Part shown: positions 4,872 through 24,261 of the stretch, one piece after another
Numbering within the stretch: the stretch's first letter is position 1
Layout of the letters: each line of letters starts with the position of its first letter
Assembly: GCA_963772455.1 (NCBI GenBank)
Contig: CAVYXJ010000010.1
Coordinates: 256,001 to 320,000, forward strand
DNA length: 64,000 nt
Origin: Candidatus Bathyarchaeota archaeon
GTDB taxonomy: Archaea; Thermoproteota; Bathyarchaeia; Bathyarchaeales; Bathycorpusculaceae
Reading direction: 5' to 3'
Translations under genes and position numbers: made by a program
The notes under the pieces: generated by a model
Seen by the model: only the letters and a program-made list of their open reading frames with translations
What the model was told of the DNA's origin: nothing
Databases searched by the model: none

Positions 4872-6715
4872 AATTGAGGCTGACTCTCTGTCAACATCGG
4901 TTCCACGTCCGCCCATGGCAATTCATATATTTGCGGATTTTAAGGCTGGTGCATCATTGACTCCATCACCTGTCATTGCAACAACTTCGCCACTGGCTTT
5001 GAATGCATTGACTATTCGTAACTTTTGTTCTAGGACAACACGTGCAAAGATGTTTACTGTTTTGCATTTTGATTTTAACTCTTCATCGCTCATTAATTCA
5101 AGCTGAGGTCCAGTGATGCAATTCTCGGGAGATCTTAACCCTATTTGACGACCAATATTCTGCGTAGTTAATGGGTAATCTCCAGTAATCATAACTACTC
5201 GAATACCTGCGGCATAACATTCTTTCACTGCGCTGTCTACATTGGGTCGTACAGGATCAGCAAAACCTATGAGTCCTAGAAAGCTAAATTCAAAACCATG
5301 TTGTTCAATGGGTAATTCTGATTTTTTAAATGTGGCTTTTGCTACACCAAGTACCCTGAGGCCGTCTCCTGCTAATGTCTGAACGTTTTCGGACATTTGG
5401 TTAAGTTTTTTCTTGTCAAAGTGACAAAGATCCGCTATTGCTTCTCGAGCACCTTTTGAGGCAATTATGTAGTCTTGTCCATTGGGTGAAACCCAAACGT
5501 TAGACATCGCAAGTAGTTTGTGGGAGAGGGGTACTCCTGTAGTAGTTTCCAATCATCATGGATATGTTCAGATGTTGCGAATTCGCCTTCTGTGAAGGTT
5601 CGGATAGCTTTTTCCATTGAGTCAAACGGATCTTCTTTACATGCTAGAACACTAAATTCCACTAATTCGTTGCAGAGATCAGGTGGTGATTTGGTGTCAA
5701 CCGGTATATTGTATATTTTATCCTCAGCTACAAACTTGCTTACTGACATTTTGTTTTGCGTTAAAGTTCCTGTTTTGTCAACGCACAAAACGGTTGCTCC
5801 GCCAAGATTCTCGATTGCATGTACTTGTCTAGTTAACACATTTTTCTTAGACATACGCCAGGCGCCTAAAGCTAGAAAAATTGTTAGAACAACAGGAAAC
5901 TCTTCCGGCAGAATTGCCATAGCTAACGTGATTCCAGCTAAGATGCCTTCAATCCAGTCAAAACGGGTCAATCCGTAAACAATTATAATTATTGTGCATA
6001 AAGTAAGACCGACCAAGGCACTGTTTCTAACAATATGGCTTATTTCCTTCTTTAGTCTGGTTTCATCTCTCTCAACTTTTTGGAGAACAGTTCCGATTTT
6101 TCCCATCTCAGTTCTTGGACCAGTGCTTTTGACTTCTGCAATAGCTTGACCTTGAATCACTACGGTGCCAGAATAAGCAAAGGGCAAATCGTCGCCCCCT
6201 GATCGATAAGTTTGTTGTTCACCCTTTCAGGCGACTTTTCTGACTGGAATTGATTCTCCCGTTAGAAGTGATTCATCGACCATTAAATTGTTGGATGAAA
6301 GCAAAAGACAGTCTGCTGGGACGCGATCCCCTTCTGATAGAACAATGGTATCTCCGAAAACCACGTCACGCCCGGGTATTCTTTTTTGTTCACCATCCCG
6401 GATTACTACCAATGCTCTTGGACTAGAAATATTTTTTAATGCATCGAGTGCTTTTTCGGTTTTTTGTTCTTGATAGACCGTTATGCCGATTATGACGAAT
6501 ACAAAGCTTAGGAGAACTGCGCCTTCTGTTACATCTCCTAATAGGAAATAAAAGCTACCGCTAGCGATTAGTAATATGAAAATTGGTTCTTTAAGGATAC
6601 TTAAGCCTATTCGGAAAATACTCCGTTTTCCCGAGGCAGGCAATTCATTATAACCTGTTTCTTTCAACCTGGTGGAAGCTTCGTTACTTGAAAGCCCAGT
6701 TATGGAATTATTTGT
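4866..6715 (-). pseudogene. Cation-transporting P-type ATPase (P2-like), disrupted and 3'-truncated
   Basis: LTGES, PEEFP, DKTGTLT, MITGD, TGDGVNDAPALK motifs; in-frame TGA at 6227 and 4923, frameshift near 5530, no start codon seen, C-terminal membrane domain missing. Confidence 0.9.
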
Positions 6716-6872
6716 TTAGATGTTAATAAGTTGGTAAATGGGACTGATCGTGTTTGTATTTCATGTTGTTTGCCGCTTGTTTTTTTCTTGAGTATGATTG
6801 GTTTTTAGTATCCAATGACAGTTTTGTTGTTATCTCACTGTCTAAGGCGCTGAACTCAACCATAGTTGTTGA

Positions 6873-7403
6873 TTACCCTGCCATCCCACATTTGGGACAT
6901 TTAATTAGTGCTTCATCAAAGACTTCGCGGCAAGATACGCATCTAATTTTTACTATGACCTCTTTTTTCAATTGTTCATGATAATTTCTTTGAGATGAAA
7001 ATATTTCATGCGCATCCATTTTTTGTTTTATTTCTTCAATAAGTTGATCATGATTCAATGAGGATTTTCTTTTAGAGATTACGTTTGAAAGTATCGACAT
7101 AACAATTTCTGCTCCTTCTCCGAAGTCACCTTCTTCGTTGGAGTTTTGTTCTTCGTCGTTTGATGGGTATTTCCATTCAATTGAAAATTCAGTTTTAGCT
7201 TGTAAGGCTACGAAGTAGAATTCGATTTCTCCTTTTTGCATAAAACTTTCTTTGTATTCTACAAGTAAATATGATGATTCAACTGATTTTTTGGTTTTTA
7301 GCTTCTTAAGTCCAATACTTGTCAATACGGTCTGAAGTTTTGAAAATGTTTCTTCAGTATTCTTGGAGGTAATGAACTTTTTTCGTATAGTGGATTGTGA
7401 CAT
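6873..7403 (-). CDS. Hypothetical protein with C-terminal zinc ribbon (paralog of 8686..9147)
   Basis: CVSC...CPKCG; GGTGA-like RBS upstream; shares a 95-bp identical block with the paralog. Confidence 0.75.
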   Translation of the reverse strand: MSQSTIRKKFITSKNTEETFSKLQTVLTSIGLKKLKTKKSVESSYLLVEYKESFMQKGEIEFYFVALQAKTEFSIEWKYPSNDEEQNSNEEGDFGEGAEIVMSILSNVISKRKSSLNHDQLIEEIKQKMDAHEIFSSQRNYHEQLKKEVIVKIRCVSCREVFDEALIKCPKCGMAG

Positions 7404-7463
7404 TTCAATTCACCAATGTACTTTTTTCTTCTTATCCTTGGTTGAGGGTATATGTAATAATTG

Positions 7464-7478
7464 CTCACTCGGAAGGAG
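7464..7478. promoter_or_regulatory. Putative operator CTCNNTCSGANNGAG, copy 1
   Basis: ctcactcggaaggag; gapped palindrome repeated at 9207 and 10291. Confidence 0.6.
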
Positions 7479-7645
7479 TCTTGCTTAAATCCATTCGAAG
7501 AACCTAATTTGATCAATTGGTAGGTGTCATTGTGTGTCATCTCGAAATAATCAAAATTAAGAGGCGAAATTTGTTCTAAGGTTACTTAATTCAATTCGGA
7601 ACCCATTCAAAGTAGAAGTGCGGCATTTTCACGGAGAAAATTGAT

Positions 7646-8584
7646 TTGACTGAAAATCAGAAAGAGTGGCGTTCACGCTCTAAAGAACAATCGTTAGCTT
7701 ATGGTGGACAAGCACTAATCGAAGGTGTAATGATACGATCCAAAACGCATTTGGTTTCCTGTGTAAGAAATCCTAAAAAAGAAATAGTGACCGATATAAA
7801 ACAAATAAATCCTATTTCGGATAAATATAGGATTTTAGGGTGGCCATTTTTTAGAGGTATGGTAAATATGGTTGAAAGCTTCTTCCTTGGCGTGAAAAGT
7901 TTGATGTTTTCAGCAAGCGCTGCCTTTGAAATTGAAGCCAAAGAAGGAAAAGAACCCGAAAAGATTCAGTTTGGCTGGATGGAAACTACTTTGCTTGTTT
8001 CCGGCGTTTTAGGCATAACAGCTATTTTCTTTTTGGTTCCCTTCCTTTTGTCTACTTGGCTAAAGCTATCTGGTATTGTTTTCAATTTAGTTGAAGCGAT
8101 CATACGTCTGGCTATGTTTGTAGCATACTTATCAGTTATTTCCTTGTGGGGGCAATACAAGCGAGTGTTGATGTATCATGGTGCAGAACATAAAGCAATA
8201 CATGCCCACGAAGCAGGGGCTACTATGGATGTTGAACATGTAAAGAAATACTCGCGACTTCATCCTAGATGCGGCACAAGTTTTCTCTTTATAGTATTAA
8301 TGATTAGCATCATCTTGTTCACTATATTGCCAAACCTCGGCTTTACAACCAATTTTGCGTATCGTCTGTTGCTAATCCCAGTTATCGCCGGAATTTCCTA
8401 TGAGTTGCTGCGATTAAGCGGGAAATATAAAGACTCACCCATTACAAAAATTTTAATCTCCCCTGGTTTAGCATTCCAAAGATTAACTACAAAAGAACCT
8501 TCCGACGATATGATAGAAGTGTCTATCAAAGCAGTTGTTGAAGTAAACAAACTGATTTGTTTGAGTTTGAAGGATAAAAAATAG
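7646..8584 (+). CDS. DUF1385 (YqhQ-like) membrane protein
   Basis: YGGQALIEGVMIR, YHGAEHK, HPRCGTSF, LTTKEP motifs. Confidence 0.92.
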   Translation: MTENQKEWRSRSKEQSLAYGGQALIEGVMIRSKTHLVSCVRNPKKEIVTDIKQINPISDKYRILGWPFFRGMVNMVESFFLGVKSLMFSASAAFEIEAKEGKEPEKIQFGWMETTLLVSGVLGITAIFFLVPFLLSTWLKLSGIVFNLVEAIIRLAMFVAYLSVISLWGQYKRVLMYHGAEHKAIHAHEAGATMDVEHVKKYSRLHPRCGTSFLFIVLMISIILFTILPNLGFTTNFAYRLLLIPVIAGISYELLRLSGKYKDSPITKILISPGLAFQRLTTKEPSDDMIEVSIKAVVEVNKLICLSLKDKK

Positions 8585-8685
8585 AAATAAGTGTAGTCGT
8601 ATGTGTGTTAAAACTTCAGAAGGGTGGAAATGTCTTCAGAACTCACGAGATTTTTCCTTTCCATAAATTCTTGTCTTTAACTATA

Positions 8686-9147
8686 TTAGATTCCACTAAA
8701 CCCGCACTTTGGGCATGTACCTAAGGTTTCCTCATAAGCTTCAAGGCAAGCTCGGCATTTAATTTTCACTGATTCATCTTTTTCGAATTGGTTATCTTCT
8801 AGATTTCTTGAAGAAAACAGCTCTGTGGAATTCATTTTAAGCCTAATTTCTTCTATTTCTTTACAACGAGTTTCTTCATCCTGAGAGGATTGCTTTTTTT
8901 TTGATGGGTAGCTCCAATCAATTGAAAATTCAGTTTTAGCTTGTAAGGCTACGAAGTAGAATTCGATTTCTCCTTTTTGCATAAAACTTTCTTTGTATTC
9001 TACAAGTAAATAGGATGGTTCAACGGATTTTTTGGTTTTAAGATTTTTCAGCCCAATGGTGGTTAGTACTTTCTTTGCTAGAAAAAAGGTTTCTTCAAGA
9101 TTCTTGGAAGTCAAGAAATTTTTTCTTATAGTAACTTGTGAAGACAA
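8686..9147 (-). CDS. Hypothetical protein with C-terminal zinc ribbon (paralog of 6873..7403)
   Basis: CRAC...CPKCG; direct similarity to the paralog. Confidence 0.75.
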   Translation of the reverse strand: MSSQVTIRKNFLTSKNLEETFFLAKKVLTTIGLKNLKTKKSVEPSYLLVEYKESFMQKGEIEFYFVALQAKTEFSIDWSYPSKKKQSSQDEETRCKEIEEIRLKMNSTELFSSRNLEDNQFEKDESVKIKCRACLEAYEETLGTCPKCGFSGI

Positions 9148-9206
9148 GGGAAATTCACCTATGTGGCCTCTTTTAATGCATTTGTATCAGCTATATGTAA
9201 TGATTG

Positions 9207-9221
9207 CTCACTCGGAAGGAG
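9207..9221. promoter_or_regulatory. Putative operator CTCNNTCSGANNGAG, copy 2
   Basis: ctcactcggaaggag, identical to copy 1, between divergent genes. Confidence 0.6.
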
Positions 9222-9323
9222 GTTGTCTTATATTCAATCAGGACTTATTTTTTGGTTTAAATACGGCTTAAGCTTCAACATTTGTTGGATTTGGAGATTT
9301 AGTCTAGTGAATCGTGAAAACTT

Positions 9324-9995
9324 ATGATGACAGAGGAGAAGGTAGCTTCAAAAATTGCAGAATTAATGGAGACCTTAGACCAAATCAAGAAATACAAAGC
9401 TGTCACAAAATCCTTGAAGAAATTCGGGGTTATAGTCGGAGGCTCGGTAACGGTCTTCTTTGCGATTTTGACATTGTTTGAGGTATTAGAATTTGAGCAT
9501 GTTCTAAATACAACTTCGTTTTTTGTTGTAGCTTTCTTGTCGCTGTTAATTCCGATTACTGGACTGTTCGGTGGGATGTTTTTTATGCGCAAACAAATCA
9601 ATTCAGTAAAAGAAGGGGAATGGAGGCAGGATGTTTCTAAGGGATTTTCCTCTAACCTAAAATTGTTAGTTGATATGAATTGGGATAGAACACTCCAAGA
9701 CATATCTAACGGACGACTTGGATATTCTATCTATGGGCTAATTAAGGTAGGAACGTACATAATTGTTACAGTTTCGGCATTTGAGCTTTTTTGGAACGGG
9801 CTTACCCTTGTTTTGTTTCAAAGTATAGTGTCTGCGGGTGCCATATTTTGGGGTTTGTTTGGGGTTTTGCTTGTGATTGTATTGTTAGCTAATGATCTTG
9901 TGAAGCGTTATAGAGAGTTGCGTGCATTAGATACGCTTGTTTGGGAATTGCGGTGGTTTAGCTTTGAGTTTGGGAGAGCAGAATTCCAAACCTGA
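9324..9995 (+). CDS. Hypothetical membrane protein (about 4 TM segments)
   Basis: Hydrophobic segments; overlaps the downstream regulator. Confidence 0.75.
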   Translation: MMTEEKVASKIAELMETLDQIKKYKAVTKSLKKFGVIVGGSVTVFFAILTLFEVLEFEHVLNTTSFFVVAFLSLLIPITGLFGGMFFMRKQINSVKEGEWRQDVSKGFSSNLKLLVDMNWDRTLQDISNGRLGYSIYGLIKVGTYIIVTVSAFELFWNGLTLVLFQSIVSAGAIFWGLFGVLLVIVLLANDLVKRYRELRALDTLVWELRWFSFEFGRAEFQT

Positions 9996-10260
9996 CCTCT
10001 ATGTCGTCGCTAGAATTATAGAGGCGATTAAGGAGAAAAATAAGCTAAACAGGACCGCTCTGGCTACCTCCACTGGATTAGCTTATGATAGGCTTGTGCG
10101 GTATCTTTCTTGGATGTCTGATAAGGGTTTTGTTAAGATAGATAATGAAGGATTGGTTCACTTAACAAAAGAAGGCGTTCAGGCGTACGATGAGTTGGTT
10201 CGTTGGATTCTAATGCATGTTGGTCAGCTAAAGTTTGGAAGACTTGGACCTAGAACATAG
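9970..10260 (+). CDS. Winged-helix transcriptional regulator
   Basis: RTALATSTGLAYDRLVRYLSWM..KGFV...VHLTKEG wHTH pattern; start uncertain. Confidence 0.82.
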   Translation: MGEQNSKPDLYVVARIIEAIKEKNKLNRTALATSTGLAYDRLVRYLSWMSDKGFVKIDNEGLVHLTKEGVQAYDELVRWILMHVGQLKFGRLGPRT

Positions 10261-10290
10261 AACTTGGAAAGAAATGTTTTTGGTGGTTAA

Positions 10291-10305
10291 CTCCTTCGGA
10301 GTGAG
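10291..10305. promoter_or_regulatory. Putative operator CTCNNTCSGANNGAG, copy 3
   Basis: ctccttcggagtgag, one mismatch from the reverse complement of copies 1 and 2. Confidence 0.55.
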
Positions 10306-10322
10306 TTCGCCTTTTATTCGAT

Positions 10323-12239
10323 GTGCCGATGGATTTAGAAGGCGTCTTAAAAGTGCAATTGACAAACAGTTGGGAATTCATTAGAAATAGCCGTGCACAA
10401 TTGATCATATGTTCAACTTTTTTGTTTTCTTTTTTGGCTATTTTTATTATTTTTTTTCCACCAAATTTGTGGATTGCTAACATAGTTGGTTTTTTCAGCT
10501 ACTTCACTAATACCTTGGCTTTATTGTTAGCCATTGGATATGTTGGTCTTTTTGTTATTGTCTTTGCTGAAACAGGGTTGTTTTTTGGGTTCTTTTTGCC
10601 TGGTGATAGCTTGCTTTTGGCAGCAGGTATACTTTCGAGTCAAAATCTTTTCAATGTTTTTGGAATTATGGTAGTTGTAATTTTGGCTGCCATAATTGGA
10701 GATAATTTTGGTTATTGGTTTGGGAGAAGGGTTGGTCCAGTGTTTATTAAAAGAGAATCTCGCTTTTTGAATGCACAAAGGGTTGAATCTGTCAGGGTTC
10801 TCTTTGAGAAGCATGGTTCAAAGGCCATTGTTTTTGCGCGTTTTGTACCTATTGCACGAACATTTGCACCTATTCTTGCAGGGGCAAGTAAAATGAAAGT
10901 CTCAAGTTTCTTTTATTATAATGTAGTTGGAGCGTTGCTGTGGGGCATAACTATGCCAATGCTTGGCTACACTTTGGGAAGGGTTATTCCAGATATCCAA
11001 CAATACATTTACCCTATTATCGCTTTAATTATTGTTTTTTCGGTTCTTCCTTGGGTGATCAAACCCATTTCTAGAATTGGAAAGTCTTTTCTTTCTGGGA
11101 GAAAGAAACCCTCAAATGTTTCGTTTGCGTCTGCAGCTAACTCTTCAAGAATTATAAGTAGTGCCGAGGTACGACAAGAGCTAAAAACTCAAAGCAGATC
11201 AAAACGAACCCTGAAGATCGCTATTCAAATCATTGCTATGGCGGCAATTTTTGGGGTACTATTATGGTATGTAGGTGTAGGTTCTCTCTATGACGCCTTG
11301 TTAAACATCAAAGTAGAATACTTGTTTTTGGCGTTCTTGATGTATTTTGGAATTAACGTTTTGTTTACAGTGCGGCTTAGACGTGTTTTAGCTAAAGATG
11401 GCGTCAAAACATCTTTTGGAAAAACACTCTTGGCCCAGTATGCAGGTATGTTAACTAGCGACGTTACTCCCGGACGCTCAGGATATATTCTAACACCGGT
11501 TTATCTTCGAGATCAAAATGTGCCCACATCAAAGGGGCTTTCAAGCATTTTGGGTATTCAAACAATTGAGTTTCTGTTCAAAGTGTTAGGCGGATTGGGT
11601 GCAGTAATTTTCCTAGTAAAAACGGTGCCTACGCAAACATGGAATATGCTATTTCCTCAAACGGTTGCAGGAATCAATATTGGTATATTAATTGCGGGAT
11701 TAGGCATAATTTTGATGCTTGTTGGAGCTATTGTGTTGGCTGCTTTTACCTGGTCTAAAAGGGCTATTACCCTGTTTGATCGGGTTGCAAATTCAAAATA
11801 TCTTAAAAGGTTTACGGGGGGTTTAATGGGTAAACTTGAAGAATACAAAGAAAGCTCCCACAGTACCCGCCGAGCAATCCCGGAAATTATTGGGTTAACA
11901 GTGATATGTTGGATTCTCAAGGGGTTTGAATGGTACTTTTTGGGTTTAGCCTTGGGAATTACAAATGTGCCGTTGATTGCCTATTTTCTTATACATCCGT
12001 TGGTAACGGCGTTAGCGTTTGTTCCTATAACTCCTGCTGGAGCTGGCGTACAAGAATTCGGAATCATCGGAGTTCTTGGTCTTCTAGGCGTTGGGGTTGG
12101 TCCGGCTGGGGTTTTCGCTTTACTTGCTCGCGGTTTACTCATAATTGAAGATCTTATAGGAATACCACAGATCGTTAAATCAACAAGCAATATTTTTTCA
12201 AGCAAACCTGTTTTGGATAATCAGTTGAAAAACGGGTAG
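10323..12239 (+). CDS. DedA/VTT domain fused to a lysylphosphatidylglycerol-synthase-TM (UPF0104 flippase-like) domain
   Basis: FAETGLFFGFFLPGDSLL and ARFVPIART (DedA); VTPGRSG and PITPAGAGVQE (LPG synthase TM family). Confidence 0.85.
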   Translation: MPMDLEGVLKVQLTNSWEFIRNSRAQLIICSTFLFSFLAIFIIFFPPNLWIANIVGFFSYFTNTLALLLAIGYVGLFVIVFAETGLFFGFFLPGDSLLLAAGILSSQNLFNVFGIMVVVILAAIIGDNFGYWFGRRVGPVFIKRESRFLNAQRVESVRVLFEKHGSKAIVFARFVPIARTFAPILAGASKMKVSSFFYYNVVGALLWGITMPMLGYTLGRVIPDIQQYIYPIIALIIVFSVLPWVIKPISRIGKSFLSGRKKPSNVSFASAANSSRIISSAEVRQELKTQSRSKRTLKIAIQIIAMAAIFGVLLWYVGVGSLYDALLNIKVEYLFLAFLMYFGINVLFTVRLRRVLAKDGVKTSFGKTLLAQYAGMLTSDVTPGRSGYILTPVYLRDQNVPTSKGLSSILGIQTIEFLFKVLGGLGAVIFLVKTVPTQTWNMLFPQTVAGINIGILIAGLGIILMLVGAIVLAAFTWSKRAITLFDRVANSKYLKRFTGGLMGKLEEYKESSHSTRRAIPEIIGLTVICWILKGFEWYFLGLALGITNVPLIAYFLIHPLVTALAFVPITPAGAGVQEFGIIGVLGLLGVGVGPAGVFALLARGLLIIEDLIGIPQIVKSTSNIFSSKPVLDNQLKNG

Positions 12240-12970
12240 CTGAATCGATTAATAGAACTGCTTTTTTAAACTGCTTAGGGAAAAGGAACAAGCATTTTTG
12301 AAGGGCTTGTAACCTTAACTTGCTGTTAGTGTATAACAAGATTATGGTCAATTTCCCATCCGAAACTAATAGGTAACTTATTCCCTGCAAAACTGCAGAT
12401 TTTAGGCTTGTAAAGAAATATTTTATTTCAGAGAAAGCATTGAGCTGCAAACATGCTGTTATTTGTTGTTTAATTCTGGTATCGCTGCAATCGCAATTCG
12501 ATGCAATACTAGCATTGCTAGTATAAAGAAAGCGACTATAAATCAACAAATCAAAAACTATCTTTCCCCTTTTTTAGTCTTAAAATATGCATTGGAGAAG
12601 AATGGGGCTGAGTAGGCTCTGGTTAAAATTTACAATAGTAGCTATAGAGAGTTTGCATTTTCTCTCTTTTCTCCTAATTTGGTGCCGGAGCCTCAGCAAA
12701 CCTCACTTTTTTCGATTGCAAATTTAACAATATATGTAACTATGTTATTCGATGGCATTGAGAAAAAGGCATTAAGTGAACTCCAGCGACAAACCTAAAA
12801 AGCGTAATCACCGTAATGACAACAGCAAAGAGGTCTAGCAGATTCCAAAACAACCCAAAATCGCATCCATTACTGAACAGGAATATCTTGACTTACTCAA
12901 GAAAAACCAAAAACTAACCATTATCAAAACAACTCTTGAACAAACACTCAACAACAAAAATCATGGAAAA

Positions 12971-13660
12971 ATGTTCAGCATTGTTACAGCGACATGGAAT
13001 CCAATTTCAGGTTGTCTTTACAACTGCAACTACTGCTGGGCGAAAAACTTGGCGCTAACAAAACTCAAAACTAGCAAAAGATACATTAATGGATTTAAGC
13101 CGAGTTTGAATGACTCAGAATTTAAAGCTAAATTCCACAAAGGCGACCTTATTTTTGTGGCTGACATGGGAGACATGTTCGCCGATTTTACTCCTGAAAA
13201 ATGGATTAAACAAGTATTAGACCATATTAGACAATTTCCCGAAGCAGACTTTCTATTCATGACAAAAAACCCTCAGAGATACCTTGAACTTTTACCTTTT
13301 ATTCCAGATAACGCAATTCTAGGCGCAACTATTGAAACAAACATTGACTCAATTATTACTCAAGACAAAGTGTCGAATGCCCCCCTTCCCAGTGAACGCG
13401 CTAAAGCAATGAAGGCTTTAGATTGGAAAAGAAAAATTGTTTCAGTAGAACCTATCCTTCAGTTTGACCTTGAAATATTTTCTAAATGGATTGAAGATAT
13501 CGACCCATTTATTGTGTATGTAGGTTACGACAATTATTGTCATAAACTGCGTGAGCCTACATTGAAGCAAACAACAGATTTACTCAATACACTGTCAGAC
13601 AATTCACTGGTAATTAGGAAAACCATTCGTCCTTCATGGTCTGAAATGTGCTCTTCATAA
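12971..13660 (+). CDS. DUF5131 (phage Gp37/Gp68-like) radical SAM-type protein
   Basis: TWNPISGCLYNCNYCWA, IFVADMGDMF, FMTKNPQR, GATIE, VSVEPIL. Confidence 0.88.
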   Translation: MFSIVTATWNPISGCLYNCNYCWAKNLALTKLKTSKRYINGFKPSLNDSEFKAKFHKGDLIFVADMGDMFADFTPEKWIKQVLDHIRQFPEADFLFMTKNPQRYLELLPFIPDNAILGATIETNIDSIITQDKVSNAPLPSERAKAMKALDWKRKIVSVEPILQFDLEIFSKWIEDIDPFIVYVGYDNYCHKLREPTLKQTTDLLNTLSDNSLVIRKTIRPSWSEMCSS

Positions 13661-13681
13661 TAATCTGATTGAGGAATAAAC

Positions 13682-14632
13682 ATGCCAGCTAAAATTCCAA
13701 CCTCAGAATGGCTAAAAGATAAACTGAATAGACTGGAAGAAATGACAGAAGTTGTTAAAAAAATTAGCCCTGAATTCTATTCAGAAGTTGACCCAGATTA
13801 TGGCTTTTGGTCTATAAAGAAAGAAATTGCGTTAATGTACTGGTCTTATCCCTTTCAACATATAGCAAAAAACCACTTTGAATCATTCTATTACATTGAC
13901 CTGTTCGCTGGGTCAGGATTAATGAAGGCTGAAAACAGTTTTTTTGTTGGTTCACCTGTTGTCGCTGTAAGCTCAACAATTAAAGATAAAGGATTTAGCA
14001 AATACATCTGCATTGAACAAGCTGAAGATCGAAAAGTAGTCCTTGAAAAACGCCTCAATAAAGCCTGTGAACAACATCAGACATGCGATCCAACGGTGAT
14101 TCAAGGCGACTGTAACAAGGAAATTCTTAACGTGTTAAGGGAACATGCACCTAAAGGAAACACGTGTTTTTTGGCTTTTGTTGATCCACAGAGTTATTCT
14201 CAGTTAAATTGGAGTACTTTAGAGACTTTAATGAGTTATGGAAAAGGCGACATAATCCTAAATTTCCCAACCATGGGACTTACGCGGAATTTGAATAATG
14301 CAGAGTGTAGGCGTTCAATCTCAGCTTTTGTTGGTGATGATTTATGGCCAGAAGAGATTGGGCAACTTAAAATCGATGATTTTTTGGATTATTTCATGAG
14401 CAAGATGAAACGGTTCAGAAGTGAAGTTCATAGTTTAAAGGTTAAAGATGAAAAAAATCACCGATTGTTCGATTTGGTTTTTGCTACAGGTTCGACTGGA
14501 ATGAATAATGCATTAGCTGATTTAACTGAGAAGTTGGATGCATTTAACACTAAAACTATCAAGGGATTGTATTCTGTAGTTGCCAAAGGACAAACTCAAA
14601 TGCAGGATTTTTACAGCCAACAGTTACTTTAA
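13682..14632 (+). CDS. tcmP: Three-Cys-motif partner protein TcmP (SAM-dependent methyltransferase fold)
   Basis: WSIKK, YIDLFAGSG, GSP, GDCN, AFVDP, WSTL, LVFAT; directly downstream of DUF5131. Confidence 0.85.
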   Translation: MPAKIPTSEWLKDKLNRLEEMTEVVKKISPEFYSEVDPDYGFWSIKKEIALMYWSYPFQHIAKNHFESFYYIDLFAGSGLMKAENSFFVGSPVVAVSSTIKDKGFSKYICIEQAEDRKVVLEKRLNKACEQHQTCDPTVIQGDCNKEILNVLREHAPKGNTCFLAFVDPQSYSQLNWSTLETLMSYGKGDIILNFPTMGLTRNLNNAECRRSISAFVGDDLWPEEIGQLKIDDFLDYFMSKMKRFRSEVHSLKVKDEKNHRLFDLVFATGSTGMNNALADLTEKLDAFNTKTIKGLYSVVAKGQTQMQDFYSQQLL

Positions 14633-14910
14633 AAATTAATGTCTCAAAATTGTAAGAAGTTAACTAGAAATTTTCCAGGGTCCTTTGAGTGCGTCCATAT
14701 GACCCAGTCAAAGACATGAAAATCCATAGCCCAAAAATTGTTCGAAGATTTGAGCAGCTCAACTGGGTTAAGGCTCAAAGTTGGTTTCGACCATGCTTTA
14801 GGTTTGCAGCGCTTTTACACTACGTTACAATTGATTAGTGAGGATGGGAAAAAACAACTATGCCATCTTGTTTTCAGTAATATTACAATTTTGTCTGTTT
14901 ACTATTCGTA

Positions 14911-15047
14911 ACTCAACCCACAAGCCGAGGATTTGATTCCTGAGTGCAAATATAGCTTAGGTGGCTTGCAGCATGCTAGCGCGCGTACCCCAACACCATG
15001 TTGGCTTCTAGTAGCAGAGGCCGCAAGCGGATCCTCAAAGCCTAAGC
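14911..15047. ncRNA. Candidate structured RNA or DNA element (multi-stem junction)
   Basis: Nested helices gcttagg/cctaagc, tgctag/ctagta, ccaaca/tgttgg, gagg/cctc, ccg/cgg in a GC-rich patch of AT-rich intergenic DNA. Confidence 0.35.
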
Positions 15048-15291
15048 AATAACACTAATACGTAAACTATCCCAAAAGCCCTTCTCGATGAATACCCATA
15101 ACCTAGAATTCTAGGAATTTCTAGTGATTTCAAAGAACAAGTAATTTATAGAATTGATTAAATTCATTGTGTAATTATTTAATTTTTATTTATTGCAAAA
15201 TCACTAATCAAATTACAGATTACTTCAGATTACTTTGTTACTAGATAAAATTACTTATTAATTTCTAGAAGTATGGTTATTAATAATAAGA

Positions 15292-16317
15292 ATGCTGAAT
15301 AATATGACTATTGAACACCTAAAAACGTGTCCCTGCGAATTTGGCTGCAGAGAAAAGCGATCTACTGTTGTAAATTTAGTTTTAGAAAAGGGAACTTGTT
15401 CAGTCAGAGAATTGCACGATTTTCTCGATGGCAAAATTGGTGTATACGCTTTCAGAAGCAGCATTGAATACTTGTGTACAGGACAATGCAAACTAGTTGG
15501 AGTATATGGTTTATGTGCCGGTCAAAAGCCTCCTCAAATTGGGAGACGCGGAAGGCTGCTCTATCGAAGAACAATGGCCTCTGAAACCCTCCAAGAAGTT
15601 ATAGTTGGGCTTCTATCACCGCTTCAAAAAAGAATATTGGACAAGTTTACTTTGCTAAATCGACGTATTTTTTATTTCACAGCATATGATCTACGTCGGC
15701 TAATTCCATCTTCCGGAAATGAGGTTGAATATGCTGTAAAAAGGCTAATCACGTTGGGCTTATTGAATAAATTAACTTTTAACGGAATAGTTTTTTATGT
15801 TAAACCTTCGAACGTATCGCGCCTAGTGCTTCAAGAAAGACAAGCAATACTTGACGACAAAACAGAATATGCAGTTATAAAAATAGTACACGAATTAATT
15901 ATGAATCTTTACCCAGCAAATACTATAACTGGTTATACTGATAGAATTCGCCCTCACACCCAAGACATATTAACTGTCACCGGCGGGATGGCTTTTGACA
16001 TTTTCTATCAGTTCCGCGACCCAATAGCAGAGCGAAATTACCTAGCAATTGACGTTTACACTAGAATCCCTGTTACAGGTTTTATGGTTCATTCTTTTAC
16101 TAAAAAAATCGAATGGGCAAAGACAGTAACACGGAAAAAAACAACCAACTACCTCAAAGACAAGACTTATGGAATAATAGTTTATAGAAATGCTACGAGA
16201 AATGCAATAATAATAGCAAATAGAGTTGGCCTAAAGTTTCTCAGGTTACGAGACATCAAAGTTGATTATAAACAACTTCGTAATGAAATTGAAAATCAGA
16301 TTTCAACGAATCCTTAG
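15292..16317 (+). CDS. wHTH-containing protein with C-terminal restriction-endonuclease-like (Mrr/PD-(D/E)XK-type) domain
   Basis: Two wHTH-like segments; C-terminal AFDIF...LAIDVY...YGIIVYRNATRNAIIIANRVGLKFL pattern. Confidence 0.55.
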   Translation: MLNNMTIEHLKTCPCEFGCREKRSTVVNLVLEKGTCSVRELHDFLDGKIGVYAFRSSIEYLCTGQCKLVGVYGLCAGQKPPQIGRRGRLLYRRTMASETLQEVIVGLLSPLQKRILDKFTLLNRRIFYFTAYDLRRLIPSSGNEVEYAVKRLITLGLLNKLTFNGIVFYVKPSNVSRLVLQERQAILDDKTEYAVIKIVHELIMNLYPANTITGYTDRIRPHTQDILTVTGGMAFDIFYQFRDPIAERNYLAIDVYTRIPVTGFMVHSFTKKIEWAKTVTRKKTTNYLKDKTYGIIVYRNATRNAIIIANRVGLKFLRLRDIKVDYKQLRNEIENQISTNP

Positions 16318-16576
16318 CATTTATGTTGAAGCTAACTACCCTAATTTGAACACTCTTGTTGGACTACCCAATTTGGTCCCAAAGTTTCATGGATGTATAT
16401 GCCAATATGATTAAACGGAGTTTCAAAGGTGCTTTAATGCCAACTAGGACAAAGCAATAACCGCACATACACGCGACTATACTTAGGCAAAGCTCAGAAA
16501 ATAAATGGTTGGTACATGAGATCCCCATTATTGTTTTACCCTACGCCATAGACTGAGACAATTAAAACCCCTAAAG

Positions 16577-16855
16577 GTGAATTGGGCTTTGCACTGATGC
16601 ACTATCGAAAGACCAAGCATGGTCGAATTCACTAAAAAAGATAGTAATAGTTGACCCACGCTGTTTCTCGAGACAAATTTTTGTCTAGGGTTTTTTATGT
16701 CAATACCCAAACGGACATTGTTCTATCACGAATCGAGAGTATAAGGAAGCAAGGGTAAACTAACAATAAGCTAGTAGGATACCTATACCAAAAAATAGAG
16801 TGTTAAGCCTTTTCTTGCTTGTCTCTATCTTGCTCAGTTCGTGATAGACATTTGG
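16577..16855. ncRNA. Candidate structured element or MITE-like long hairpin
   Basis: tctatcacgaa/ttcgtgataga, aagcaag/cttgctt, taaca/tgtta nested; further stems gtgaatt/aattcac and gacca/tggtc. Confidence 0.3.
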
Positions 16856-16887
16856 ATGCGCGACTCAAGGTTTTTCTATATCATTAG

Positions 16888-21921: not shown

Positions 21922-22797
21922 ATGACCGCTGCCGCGCCAGCGAAAGGATTAATCGCTCTTCTGCGGCTTCCCTACTGGCTCATGACTGGCGGGTTATCAG
22001 TTTTAACAGCTTTTGCAATCACAAAAACCATGATTGCTCCCCAAACAATCCTGCTTATTTTCTTCTCTATGGCGTTCATAACCTCTGCTGGCTTTGCCAT
22101 AAACGATTATTTCGACCGAGAAAGTGATGCGGTAATCAAGCCAAAACGCCCTATTCCTTCAGGAGCATTATCGCTTAAACAAGTAGTGGCTGTTTCAAGC
22201 ATACTCTTCGCTTTAGGATTAGTTATGGCAGCTTTGATTAATTGGCTTAGTTTCGCGATCATCGCCGTTGATTCGCTGTTGCTGCTGGTTTATTCTTACA
22301 TGGTGAAGCGCAAGTCTGGTTTTGTTGCTAACATTTTGGTCGGCATTCTAACAGGAACGGCGTTCATGTATGGGCAAGCCACAATAACCAATCCTGCAAT
22401 TGTGAATTTGGTTTCGTTAAGCTTGTACCCAATAGCTTTTGGCACCATCGGCGGTAACGTGCTTCGGGACATCTTGAGCGTGGAAGGCGACTCCAAAGTT
22501 GGATACCCAACCCTGCCCCAGAAAATCGGCAACATAAGCGCAGCCAAAGTCGGCGCTCTATTTTTCCTCTTGACAGGTATACTTGCACCCCTTCCATATT
22601 TCATAGGAAATTTTACTTTCTACTATCTGCCGCTAATTCTGCTCTGGAGTGTCCTGTTAATCTACGCTTCAATTCGACTAGTAACATCATGTTCAACCGT
22701 TCAGAACGTCCGCAAGTATGAACGCATAGTTACAATGTCGATGATTCTGCTGCCTCTGGCTTTGATAGTTGAAGCTGTGCTTGGATGGTTGATATGA
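21922..22797 (+). CDS. UbiA prenyltransferase, DGGGP synthase-like
   Basis: INDYFDRESDAVIKPKRPIPSG and RDILSVEGD..VGYPTLP motifs. Confidence 0.88.
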   Translation: MTAAAPAKGLIALLRLPYWLMTGGLSVLTAFAITKTMIAPQTILLIFFSMAFITSAGFAINDYFDRESDAVIKPKRPIPSGALSLKQVVAVSSILFALGLVMAALINWLSFAIIAVDSLLLLVYSYMVKRKSGFVANILVGILTGTAFMYGQATITNPAIVNLVSLSLYPIAFGTIGGNVLRDILSVEGDSKVGYPTLPQKIGNISAAKVGALFFLLTGILAPLPYFIGNFTFYYLPLILLWSVLLIYASIRLVTSCSTVQNVRKYERIVTMSMILLPLALIVEAVLGWLI

Positions 22798-24261
22798 GCG
22801 AAACCAAAAGTATCTGCCCTGACTGCCAAAAGAAAATAGATGCTCAACTCTCTCAAACCAATGGCAAAATCCAAATCACAAAACAATGCCCTGAACATGG
22901 CGAATTCAAAGCAACCCATTGGCAAAGCGTGCCAATATACAATCACATGCAAAAATACGATCAGTACCAGTACCTTGGCGACTTGAACGCGCCAAAAAAC
23001 CCTGATGGGTGCCCTTACAAATGCGAAACTTGTACTGAACATGCTTCTGGAACAGTGATTGGCGTCATTGACGTAACCAAACGTTGCAACTTTAAATGTG
23101 CAGTATGTTTTTCAACTTTTCCAGATCAAGAAGGGGATTATGAACCCACCAAAGAAGCACTCGTAAACATGCTCAAGTTCGCAAGCAAAGCTAACCCTAA
23201 ACCCCCAGCAATTCTATTCTCAGGCGGTGAACCCCTTGAACGCGAAGACATGCCTGAAATCATAGCCGCTGCGCATAAACTGAAATTCATGACTATCTTG
23301 GCGACAAACGGGACACATTTGGTGGATACGCCGGGATTAGCCAAGAGGCTCAAAGACAGCGGCTTAAACATAGTTTATTTATCGTTTGACAGTTTTCATG
23401 AAGAGTTCAACAGAAAGGTTAGAGGACGAGAGCTTCTTAGACATGAAACTTAAGGCTATAGACGTTTGCCGCAAATACGACATGGAAATAATCCTCGTTA
23501 ACACCTTGATGAAGAGTCTTAACGACAAAGAAGTAGGCGACATGATCCGATTCGCCGCCAAAAACACTGACATAGTCCGAGGTTTAATTTTTCAACCTAT
23601 CGCCTTTACAGGCAGAGCAACAGAGAATCCATTCCGCGAGAACTTTCGTGAATGGTCTTTTGCTGAGGATGTGGAAAGCCAAACTCAAGGCGAAATAAAA
23701 TCCACTGATTTGTATCCTATGTCCGTTATGACTTCGCCGATTAAAATAATGCGTAAGTTCATGCAGAAACCTTGGCCATTGTTCTCATGCAGCCCGCAGT
23801 GCGGAATTGTCAATTGGGTTTACGTTTCTAAAAGCGGCAAAATGTTTCCAATCAACCGCTTCGTAAACTTTGACCGCTTTTTCAATAGTATTCGCAAAAC
23901 TGCTGAAAACGCAGAGTCAAAAGGTAAAATTTCCTTGCTATCCTCACTTTTCATGGCTTCTATGTTGTCAATGGATATGTTCTTAGTTACCAAAGAAGTC
24001 GGTATGCCAACTCTGATGAAGTCAATTATGAAAATGCATCTTTCGCCATCTTATCAGTCGCTGGGTAAAATCCGTCGCAGAATATTCCTGTTGGGCTGCA
24101 TGGCGTTCATGGATTCTTACAACTTTGACGTTAATCGTGTCCGACGATGCGTAGTGCACTACATCACGCCAGATCTTAAAATAATTCCATTCTGCGCCTA
24201 CAACAACGTCCATCGAGTCGCCATCGAGAAAGCATATGCCCAAAGACACAAGAAAGCTTAA
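22794..24261 (+). CDS. tes: Tetraether synthase (Tes/GDGT-MAS)-like radical SAM protein (frameshift near 23439)
   Basis: CPDC...CPEHG, GCPYKCETCTEH, IDVTKRCNFKCAVCF, FMDSYNFDVNRVRRCVVHY, IIPFCAYN; ATGA overlap with UbiA. Confidence 0.8.

Follow-up and report, generated by a model that had tools for sequence, protein, structure and literature searches.

A DUF5131-TcmP gene pair and a probably separate hairpin-associated gene with a predicted nuclease fold lie side by side in a Bathyarchaeia chromosome

The window analysed here is a 64,000-nt stretch of a Candidatus Bathyarchaeota contig, and three co-oriented open reading frames on its plus strand (Table 1) proved to be real, as an earlier sequence-only reading of the same DNA had proposed. 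That reading also placed them in an AT-rich island, a description that holds in a modest form: positions 12240-16887 have 36.4% GC, less than any other 4.6-kb stretch of the window, although positions 6000-12239 have no more than 37.9%. Gene 1 and gene 2 are 21 nt apart, while gene 3 lies 659 nt beyond gene 2 with a promoter-like motif of its own, and the three genes, co-oriented as they are, are not one operon. The interval before gene 3 contains a conserved hairpin and repeat array (14953-15287) that did not figure in the sequence-only reading. No integrase, tRNA or boundary repeat was found in the island, and none of the five intergenic fragments tried matched a known family.

Table 1. Genes and conserved elements of the low-GC stretch, in window positions
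Feature	Position	Strand	Description
Gene 1, DUF5131 (Gp37/Gp68) radical-SAM-type protein	12971..13660	+	229 aa; PF07505; CX3CX2C lineage
Gene 2, TcmP, class I SAM-dependent methyltransferase-like	13682..14632	+	316 aa; IDLFAGSG motif, DP motif
Imperfect hairpin	14953..15049	+ (tentative)	~95 nt; four helices; RNA or single-stranded DNA
Conserved linker	15050..15105		ends in CATAACC, the inverted-repeat left arm; aligns in the window and L001-L004
AT-rich spacer	15104..15272		74-87% AT, 60-171 nt across loci; GTAAT in left half, ATTAC in right half
ATGGTTATTAA motif	15273..15287	+	inverted-repeat right arm; overlaps TATA-like box
Gene 3	15292..16317	+	341 aa; predicted Cys-containing wHTH, second wHTH-like domain and PD-(D/E)xK-fold domain

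Gene 1 scored 66.6 bits against PF07505 (gathering cut-off 28.9) and gene 2 scored 112.7 bits against TIGR04474 (cut-off 53) with its three-cysteine partner 21 nt away, so the DUF5131 and TcmP labels proposed earlier both stand above curated cut-offs. Against TIGR04471 (rSAM mobile pair protein A), gene 1 reached 26.5 bits, below the cut-off of 355. Its reading frame is open upstream to 12839, and this upstream stretch is conserved in relatives. The cysteine motif of gene 1, C15-x3-C19-x2-C22, does differ from the CX6CX2C spacing that the accessible text of PMC9477430 gives for the DUF5131 main cluster, but it marks a whole lineage: 119 of the 120 close relatives listed carry CX3CX2C. These are the best 120 of 181 relatives, at 62-96% identity, and eight distant plasmid or phage relatives varied in the first spacing (CX3 in three, CX6 in three, CX8 and CX2 in one each). 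Judged from these sequences, CX3CX2C is a lineage trait and no ground for excluding gene 1 from DUF5131. For gene 2, a profile of eight sequences matched the RsmD-like methylase 2fhp (E 8e-5) and, weakly, RlmJ; a single-sequence structure model had a pLDDT of 34 and was not used.

Genes 1 and 2 are adjacent and resemble the PADLOC candidates PDC-M30 and PDC-M41. Gene 1 matched PDC-M41B/M30B (E 5e-18/7e-17) and gene 2 matched PDC-M41A/M30A, with moderate best-model scores of 44-63 bits. The accessible text of the PDC paper treats PDCs as candidates still to be studied and leaves M30 and M41 unnamed in its main text, and no anti-virus assay of either was found in the accessible PDC literature. 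The gene order is the same on pCAR1.3 and an Acetobacter plasmid; relative to the known pair, the window copy has CX3CX2C for CX6CX2C and a short TcmP. Among the TcmP loci fetched, a radical-SAM/DUF5131 gene was adjacent in seven of seven and gene 3 in none. The literature searched, mostly open-access and with one paper naming DUF5131, contained no statement that DUF5131-TcmP modifies nucleic acids nor any function for TcmP, and nucleic acid modification by the pair is something we infer. Genes 1 and 2 (module A) would make up a two-gene defence or mobile-element cassette with no need of a third gene, in which the [4Fe-4S] DUF5131 protein would perform radical chemistry on a nucleic acid or nucleotide target and the RsmD/RlmJ-like TcmP would methylate such a target.

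The sequence-only reading had instead joined all three genes in one system, with gene 3 reading or cutting according to the DUF5131-TcmP modification. The genes are adjacent, co-oriented and alike in GC content (37.1, 36.4 and 37.0% for genes 1, 2 and 3), as such a system would be. One TcmP relative has a C-terminal extension with a weak GMT-wHTH match (E 0.009, below cut-off), and because the window TcmP lacks this extension, a wHTH acting in trans is conceivable; however, the other six of the seven TcmP proteins lack both the wHTH match and gene 3. The co-occurrence check came out against the proposal: no DUF5131 or TcmP was found by tblastn and HMMs within 10 kb of gene 3 at any of five other gene 3 loci, all from Bathyarchaeia (L001-L005). 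As a control, an HMM made from the window's DUF5131 protein and its 120 close relatives picked up the DUF5131 gene at E <= 5e-14 in 9/9 loci that were annotated with it or fetched for it. In L001, tblastn gave one weak TcmP-like match 5.8 kb off (E 0.002, 24% over 78 aa), which the HMM did not confirm. Gene 3 was also absent from 13 of 13 non-Bathyarchaeia DUF5131/TcmP loci, a weak test because every gene 3 with a known host comes from Bathyarchaeia.

The two parts of the locus also differ in how far their relatives diverge, since all 120 listed DUF5131 relatives have at least 62% identity compared with 9 of 44 gene 3 relatives, and the 659-nt gap between them holds a separate conserved upstream region. 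The linkage count covers the five other loci that could be placed, a minority of the 83 distinct gene 3 relatives and none of the 120 close relatives of the DUF5131 protein, and a rare three-gene linkage may exist. A three-gene system is not supported and we consider it highly improbable; a known pair and a separate hairpin-nuclease unit is the better reading of the window. On this reading, two independent modules came to lie next to each other in the 4.6-kb stretch, flanked by a pair of convergent host genes on a Bathyarchaeia chromosome, and that the modules are separate is very probable.

The neighbours of gene 3 change from locus to locus. A type I R-M system lies beside it in L002 and L005, an OLD/AriA-type ATPase in L002, a TIR-APAZ and short pAgo (short Argonaute) pair in L003, and a weakly matching VRR-NUC-like gene is near it in L001. 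L002 also has a tRNA-Leu att-like fragment, and L001 and L004 have integrase remnants (labelled by eye and with PF16795). Of the defence system proposed in the sequence-only reading, a loose defence association is what stands, carried by the PDC-M30/M41 matches of genes 1 and 2 and by these defence genes beside gene 3 relatives.

The AlphaFold model of gene 3 (pLDDT 88.9, pTM 0.84) has two wHTH-like domains followed by a restriction-endonuclease-like fold, and fold comparisons with this model bear out the wHTH and REase-like architecture proposed from the sequence. The predicted core spans residues ~185-327 and matches VC1899, Can2, AF1548 and NucS/EndoMS at Z 7.6-8.1, near the level that the tool terms a common arrangement, with rmsd 2.7-3.7 over 105-116 residues. 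The best eight VIA rows were all REase-fold chains (Z 6.5-8.1), and Foldseek gave a probability of 1.0 for NucS/EndoMS. The top ESM Atlas match (0.94, 527 aa) represents 121 members, mostly archaeal, with HTH_24 in 14%, and a viral fold search returned partial wHTH or REase matches and nothing more. The true start is probably at 15304, and four cysteines (C13, C15, C19, C66) are conserved in the N-terminal wHTH-like domains. No match above noise was found in Pfam, NCBIfam, PADLOC, PHROGs or PDB sequences, and HMMs for Mrr_cat (PF04471) and Replic_Relax (PF13814) matched neither gene 3 nor 40 aligned and 24 divergent members. A search for longer fused forms of 654-2000 aa found none, which is weak evidence, and the mostly open-access literature searched contained no description of the protein family or of the hairpin.

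The nuclease-like domain carries E192, D236, D254, Y256, R258 and K272. Its acid ligands, at helix 1, strand 2 and strand 3, are kept in 46/47 (E192), 47/47 (D236) and 46/47 (D254) aligned members, and K272, which lies in the helix that follows strand 3, is conserved in 46/47. The apparent motif was correctly read as D...DVY and not (D/E)xK: D236 is followed by D254-V-Y256, and the motif-lysine position, two after the second acid, is Y in 40, F in 4, H in 2 and a gap in 1 of the 47, with no lysine there in the 72 pattern-matching sequences out of 83 relatives. The accessible text of PMC3424549 describes migration of the lysine into the second core helix (the PD-ExX-K pattern), and the conservation of E192, D236, D254 and K272 fits this pattern. 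Of the two options named in the sequence-only reading, a variant or an inactive nuclease, inactivity is not favoured; gene 3 may be active, since it retains the acids and has a conserved lysine one helix further on. Its C-terminal domain would be a metal-dependent nuclease whose lysine has migrated. With NucS/EndoMS, AF1548, Can2/Card1 and Mrr-like nucleases it shares the core fold and the three acids. It differs from them in the tyrosine that replaces the motif lysine, the conserved helix-2 lysine, two N-terminal wHTH-like domains where others have CARF or OB, and the absence of an HMM match.

Such a protein could act alone as a modification-dependent (type IV, Mrr-like) nuclease that reads a mark on foreign DNA with its winged helices, the hairpin doing no more than regulate it. 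Among the named clusters of the ESM Atlas, those of Mrr_cat look most similar to it (0.83-0.86, leads only), and no methyltransferase gene is adjacent to gene 3 at L001, L003 or L004. According to the accessible text of PMC11037411, stand-alone winged-helix nuclease fusions often act in this way, and the DpnI-family enzymes described there likewise combine a winged helix and a nuclease without a dedicated methyltransferase; gene 3 has the reverse of the PD-(D/E)XK-wH domain order, two wHTHs and a conserved upstream hairpin. We regard this activity as improbable, given the negative Mrr_cat HMM and the existence of a 95-nt structure more conserved than gene 3 itself, which it leaves unexplained. 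Among the structural matches listed, none was a domain-level DpnI-type match or a Replic_Relax-type chain.

DNA homology between the window and L001 begins at this hairpin (14952) and stops in the final codons of gene 3, and no conserved sequence was found after the stop. The hairpin is present in 4/4 loci with an intact gene 3 (the window, L001, L002 and L003) and in neither of two broken ones, L004, where gene 3 is frameshifted by one extra base in an A run that could be a sequencing error, and L005, where it is cut by a DDE transposase. Its unpaired elements GCGCGCG, GAG and GGAUCCU are conserved, and its identity is 70-91% in 6/6 pairwise comparisons, whereas the four-fold degenerate sites of gene 3 are 30-50% identical. 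By this measure, constraint on the hairpin is stronger than on gene 3, whose silent sites are near saturation. In the four-sequence alignment 94% of cells pair, double-sided compensatory changes occur in 5/30 pairs (all five from L003), and the covariation score was reached by 1 of 500 shuffles. Folding of the alignment gave z -5.7, and -5.2 for the other strand, against 500 column shuffles, both well above shuffles. Folded singly, the window hairpin is unremarkable (z -0.63 and +0.09), only L003 being significant. G-U wobbles at pair positions, five on the plus strand versus three on the minus strand, give a weak strand bias.

Searches for known counterparts of the hairpin were negative. At gathering threshold Rfam 15 found tRNAs and nothing else in the window and L001-L004, the best chance matches of the hairpin itself being far below cut-offs (E 0.9 and 4.1), and a covariance model of the hairpin found no further copy in the 236 kb searched nor, with filters off, in L004 or L005. 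Inspection by eye showed no conserved promoter or terminator from which a hairpin transcript could start or at which it could end, and a sigma-70 scan, which is not apt for archaea, gave chance-level counts. A tRNA was rejected by ARAGORN and Rfam, and a coding sequence by indels that break the frame among copies. An integron attC site was also rejected, because by eye the arms of the hairpin stand in the reverse order of the attC R''/R' boxes. A terminator of the upstream gene was likewise rejected, as upstream genes vary in identity and orientation.

Between the hairpin and gene 3, all ten GTAAT copies over five loci fall in the left 40% of the spacer and all eight ATTAC copies in the right 40%. 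The ATGGTTATTAA motif is found in all five loci whose upstream region is intact. In four of them it stands 31-33 nt ahead of the gene 3 ATG, and in only one is it in frame with gene 3; it is probably the promoter/operator of gene 3. The winged helices of gene 3 would bind the inverted repeats over their own promoter, resulting in autoregulation.

Autoregulation could be the whole function, with gene 3 a transcription factor that serves defence islands and senses nucleic acids through its REase-like domain, and the hairpin a cis-regulatory element. The TATA-like box is overlapped by an inverted repeat, the modelled wHTH matches that of MecI/BlaI (Z 6.5) and those of Fur-type repressors, and the HTH-fused PD-(D/E)XK families COG1395 and COG5482 are suggested regulators in the accessible text of PMC3424549. 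A sensor of this kind is difficult to reconcile with an acidic triad and helix lysine that are fully kept, and the neighbouring defence genes keep no fixed orientation to the array: in L001 they diverge from it, in the window and L002 they lie upstream in the same direction, and in L003 they are downstream. A purely regulatory role is doubtful at best.

The same repeats could instead belong to a unit that serves small integrative elements as an origin at the DNA level, in which gene 3 would be initiator- or relaxase-like, its winged helices binding the arrays and its nuclease domain nicking the hairpin as a replication or transfer origin, with defence genes as cargo. The GTAAT/ATTAC arrays converge in the AT-rich spacer between inverted repeats, the motif recurs a third time in the hairpin's apical stem (CAACACCAT versus CATAACCAT), wobbles occur on both hairpin strands, and att-like and integrase sequences lie near three of the five gene 3 loci. 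HTH and PD-(D/E)XK fusions tied to plasmid replication or relaxation exist (Replic_Relax; accessible text of PMC3424549), and gene 3 shares with Replic_Relax, COG1395 and COG5482 an HTH fused to an REase fold. It differs from them in the missing HMM match, its occurrence, as far as the host is known, in Bathyarchaeia only and the structured element at its flank. Neither gene 3 nor the hairpin was found in 72,556 plasmid and 50,697 phage records, collections in which elements from Bathyarchaeia are probably rare; the ORF subset scanned beside gene 3 contained no recognisable helicase, primase or transfer gene, and the window island itself lacks an integrase, tRNA or boundary repeat. Taken as a whole, an origin unit is unlikely but deserves serious consideration.

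Hairpin, repeat array and gene 3 (module B) are best read as an unclassified, self-contained unit, its hairpin inherited together with gene 3, that occurs repeatedly in integrated islands beside changing defence cargo. Its hairpin would be a small structured RNA that binds the gene 3 nuclease and restrains or scaffolds it, and module B would be a stand-alone defence/addiction module. Given two separate modules, we favour this RNA-partner mechanism tentatively, and two modules with such a partner are, as a whole, the best explanation we can offer, though somewhat short of probable. RNA-partnered nucleases such as type III toxin-antitoxin systems and IscB/omega-RNA have a structured non-coding element directly upstream on the same strand. 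Module B resembles them in its conserved structured element directly upstream of gene 3, with unrelated sequence beyond the 5' edge. It differs in that the hairpin is single-copy, has no array of repeated RNA units and no Rfam similarity, and is known here from DNA alone, and in that the nuclease fold is unrelated. A more specific possibility, that the hairpin is a guide-taking small-RNA scaffold loaded into the gene 3 protein with the guide drawn from the unrelated sequence past the conserved edge, has in our view a very slim chance of being right.

The DUF5131-TcmP pair is already known, whereas the gene 3 family and the hairpin have no Pfam, NCBIfam, PADLOC, PHROG or Rfam assignment in our searches. 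A three-gene system would have given a handle on the DUF5131-TcmP pair, and that handle fails; what remains is a compact unit in which a structured non-coding element accompanies a nuclease site that is unusual but seems complete. If the hairpin is a DNA origin, the unit would serve the replication or transfer of the integrated elements in which Bathyarchaeia defence genes reside. If it takes a guide, it would belong to a Bathyarchaeia PD-(D/E)xK nuclease that is guided or licensed by RNA, has a fold unrelated to Cas, TnpB, IscB or Argonaute and spreads among defence islands as a 1.35-kb cassette. If the hairpin is an RNA partner, module B would be a new RNA-nuclease pairing in an abundant uncultured class of archaea.

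All three ORFs of the sequence-only reading were confirmed at their positions (table). That reading had joined them in one system, with gene 3 (wHTH plus restriction-endonuclease-like) as reader or effector of a modification made by gene 1 (DUF5131) and gene 2 (TcmP). Of 41 pattern matches in a GTDB scan, five were confirmed as gene-3 loci (L001 to L005), all titled Bathyarchaeia or Bathyarchaeota and each taken with 10-kb flanks. Searches by tblastn and HMM placed DUF5131 or TcmP within the flanks of none of the five: tblastn returned one weak match (E 0.002), and the HMMs reached best E values of 0.046 and 0.36 across 1774 six-frame segments. As a positive control, the DUF5131 HMM recovered its gene in nine control loci (E <= 5e-14). 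All 13 DUF5131/TcmP loci lacked a match to the gene-3 HMM at E <= 1, a weak test because none of these loci is from Bathyarchaeia. With 0/5 loci, a small sample, the three-gene model is therefore unsupported, and we consider it very improbable. Genes 1 and 2 on one side and gene 3 on the other are two modules with different distributions.

Coordinates of features in the window and, where named, at other gene-3 loci
Feature	Position	Strand	Remark
P-type ATPase-like gene	4923-6667		three ORFs; label by eye
Paralogous small genes	6873-7403; 8686-9147		C-terminal zinc ribbon in each; on either side of DUF1385 gene
DedA/LPG-synthase-type gene	ends 12239	+	left neighbour of the three ORFs
Gene 1, DUF5131	12971-13660	+
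Gene 2, TcmP	13682-14632	+
DNA homology to L002	14950-15119		82%; part of the match
DNA homology to L001	14952-16304		full span
Hairpin, ~95 nt	14953-15049
GCGCGC; GGATCC	14979-14984; 15029-15034		invariant 6-nt palindromes, unpaired, 4/4 copies
CAACACCAT	14991-14999		near copy of repeat arm (CATAACC..), apical stem-loop
Inverted-repeat arms	15097-15105; 15273-15281
Gene 3	15292-16317	+
DUF362 gene	ends 16888	-	right neighbour of the three ORFs
Radical-SAM-like gene	22785-24261		two ORFs; label by eye
tRNA-Leu 3' fragment, L002	13003-13027		att-like
tRNA-Leu 3' fragment, L004	5875-5899; 8603-8690		att-like
L002 homology begins, L004	9853		at hairpin 3' end; hairpin itself absent
Frameshifts, L004	10482-10492		gene 3 and nearby integrase; possibly sequencing error
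Genes immediately downstream of gene 3, L003	11687-15772		TIR-APAZ, short prokaryotic Argonaute, nucleoside-deoxyribosyltransferase-like; Bathyarchaeota genome

The supposed AT-rich island held up in composition, since 12240-16887 is the window's lowest 4.6 kb (36.4% GC), and is modest as an island, the left neighbourhood being near-equal at 37.9%. A search of both ends of this stretch for tRNAs, integrases and boundary repeats came up empty. Thermosome, RadB and archaeal topoisomerase I, among the 20 of 58 long ORFs scanned, mark the window as archaeal. The two split genes in the window are pseudogenes or assembly errors.

Gene 1 scores 66.6 bits against the DUF5131 model (cut-off 28.9) and 26.5 bits against TIGR04471, far under the cut-off of 355; gene 2 scores 112.7 bits against TcmP (cut-off 53). 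RadicalSAM.org (PMC9477430, in excerpt) places DUF5131 in Megacluster-5-2, next to spore photoproduct lyase (5-3), and assigns it CX6CX2C, so the remark that the CX3CX2C of gene 1 is unusual for the family was correct. CX3CX2C occurs in 119 of 120 gene-1 relatives among those listed (181 found), and eight plasmid or phage relatives, picked for spread from 174 matching records, comprise three CX3, three CX6, one CX8 and one CX2; on these counts the short spacing is a trait of a lineage. In the region 12817-12970 the gene-1 reading frame has no stop from 12839 onward; what it encodes there is conserved in many relatives, but it offers no ATG, GTG or TTG. The ATG at 12817 looks like the beginning of a relative with 94% identity, yet is out of frame. 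Gene 1 may use a non-canonical start codon, or this upstream extension may be in decay.

A profile of eight TcmP proteins matches an RsmD-like methylase (E 8e-5) and, weakly, RlmJ (E 0.2-0.8), and it is reasonable to infer from their folds that the DUF5131-TcmP pair modifies nucleic acid. Our literature search returned no demonstration of such modification; two papers list TcmP in tables only. Genes 1 and 2 match the A and B models of the PADLOC candidates PDC-M30 and PDC-M41, part of a set that was compiled from genes lying inside BREX, DISARM and type I R-M systems, then put forward for later study (bioRxiv 10.1101/2024.01.29.577857, in excerpt). A DUF5131 or radical-SAM gene adjoins TcmP at 7/7 TcmP loci examined, and TcmP is present at 2/8 loci selected by DUF5131. 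On four haloarchaeal plasmids TcmP is partnered by longer radical-SAM proteins instead of DUF5131, two of them matching spore-photoproduct lyase weakly; two of the four loci carry two radical-SAM genes.

Gene 3 matched no curated family in profile databases and has 83 distinct relatives (sets of 44 and 43, four in common). An alignment of 40 sequences yielded a confident structure model (pLDDT 88.9). Residues ~13-97 resemble wHTH repressors (MecI, Z 6.5, rmsd 2.8, 68 aligned); residues ~105-180 have wHTH-like secondary structure and a single structural match (DsrD, Z 5.6). Residues ~185-327 match REase-fold chains: VC1899 (Z 8.1, rmsd 2.7, 110 aligned), Can2 (8.0, 2.9, 112), AF1548 (7.8, 3.4, 105), NucS (7.8, 3.2, 108) and EndoMS (7.8, 3.5, 116), middling Z values whose best rows are concordant. 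The model and its matches support the predicted wHTH plus restriction-endonuclease-like architecture. Cys13, Cys15, Cys19 and Cys66 are conserved and may bind zinc. An ESM Atlas cluster of 527-aa proteins (121 members, mostly archaeal, feature score 0.94 to gene 3), not recognised among the sequence-search matches, may be a larger sister family.

Among 47 aligned members E192 is kept in 46, D236 in 47, D254 in 46 and K272 in 46, while position 258 is R in 44 and K in two. The canonical (D/E)xK lysine is indeed missing, replaced by Y, F or H. Of 83 relatives, 72 fit the motif pattern, with K at the motif position in none and in the following helix K in 71 and R in one; the remaining 11 lie outside the pattern and hence outside these counts. 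Since members of this superfamily are described whose lysine has moved to the second core helix without loss of catalysis (PMC3424549, in excerpt), the predicted site is more likely variant than dead. Of the "variant or inactive" nuclease proposed, the first half is favoured and the second less likely, acids and helix lysine being kept. A type IV nuclease acting alone (cf. PMC11037411, in excerpt) is a quite improbable reading of gene 3.

Neighbours of gene 3, labelled from selected ORFs (two sets of 21 scanned), differ from locus to locus: a weak VRR-NUC-like gene at L001, type I R-M and an OLD/AriA-type ATPase at L002, TIR-APAZ and short Argonaute at L003, which we take to be SPARTA-like, tRNAs, integrase and transposase at L004, and type I R-M and transposase at L005. 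The tRNA-Leu fragments of L002 and L004 mark integrated elements targeting tRNA-Leu.

Upstream of gene 3 lie, in order, the hairpin, a linker ending in the inverted-repeat arm CATAACC, an AT-rich spacer (60-171 nt across loci) and the mirror arm ATGGTTATTAA, which overlaps a TATA-like box. Within the spacer, 10/10 GTAAT copies fall in the left 40% and 8/8 ATTAC copies in the right 40%. Because ATGGTTATTAA lies 31-33 nt before the ATG in 4/5 loci and is in frame with gene 3 in only 1/5, it is probably promoter DNA, and the true start would be 15304; for 12 of 44 database proteins the annotated start is the ATG upstream of 15304. The apical loop of the hairpin is complementary to ATGGT in the right arm, and their variants do not co-vary.

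The hairpin is present at 4/4 loci with intact gene 3 (window, L001, L002 and L003) and at 0/2 with broken gene 3. Its identity to the window copy at the three other loci is 91, 89 and 71%, with 80, 58 and 44% for the protein and 50, 32 and 30% at four-fold degenerate sites. The consensus has 30 pairs in four helices, with 94% of cells paired, and double-sided changes at five of the 30 pairs were equalled by 1/500 shuffles, in four sequences of which L003 supplies every double change. On both strands, no column-shuffled alignment folded as stably as the real one (z -5.7 and -5.2); the window copy folded singly was no better than shuffled sequences, and G-U wobbles (5 vs 3) slightly favour the + strand. 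Rfam, plasmid and phage sequences held no match. Judged from these alignments, the hairpin is under constraint and co-inherited with gene 3. Its two palindromes could be dimerisation or protein-binding sites.

The iteron-like arrays, a third occurrence of the repeat motif within the apical stem, and the precedent set by Replic_Relax speak for a DNA origin with gene 3 as initiator- or relaxase-like protein, the main rival reading, which we think unlikely. Gene 3 as a regulator is an improbable reading. Unpaired loops conserved over 95 nt suit RNA, and the hairpin is absent solely where gene 3 is broken, so we favour, tentatively, a small RNA restraining or scaffolding the nuclease in a stand-alone defence or addiction module. 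The winged helices would bind the inverted repeats at gene 3's own promoter, and the hairpin would partner a metal-dependent nuclease. Type III antitoxins, IscB omega-RNA and attC sites offer comparisons; titles and listings in our literature search gave no account of a hairpin partner of gene 3. Genes 1 and 2 add a new member to the already known DUF5131-TcmP pair of putative function, and gene 3 with its upstream element falls within the HTH-PD-(D/E)xK kind as a new variant.
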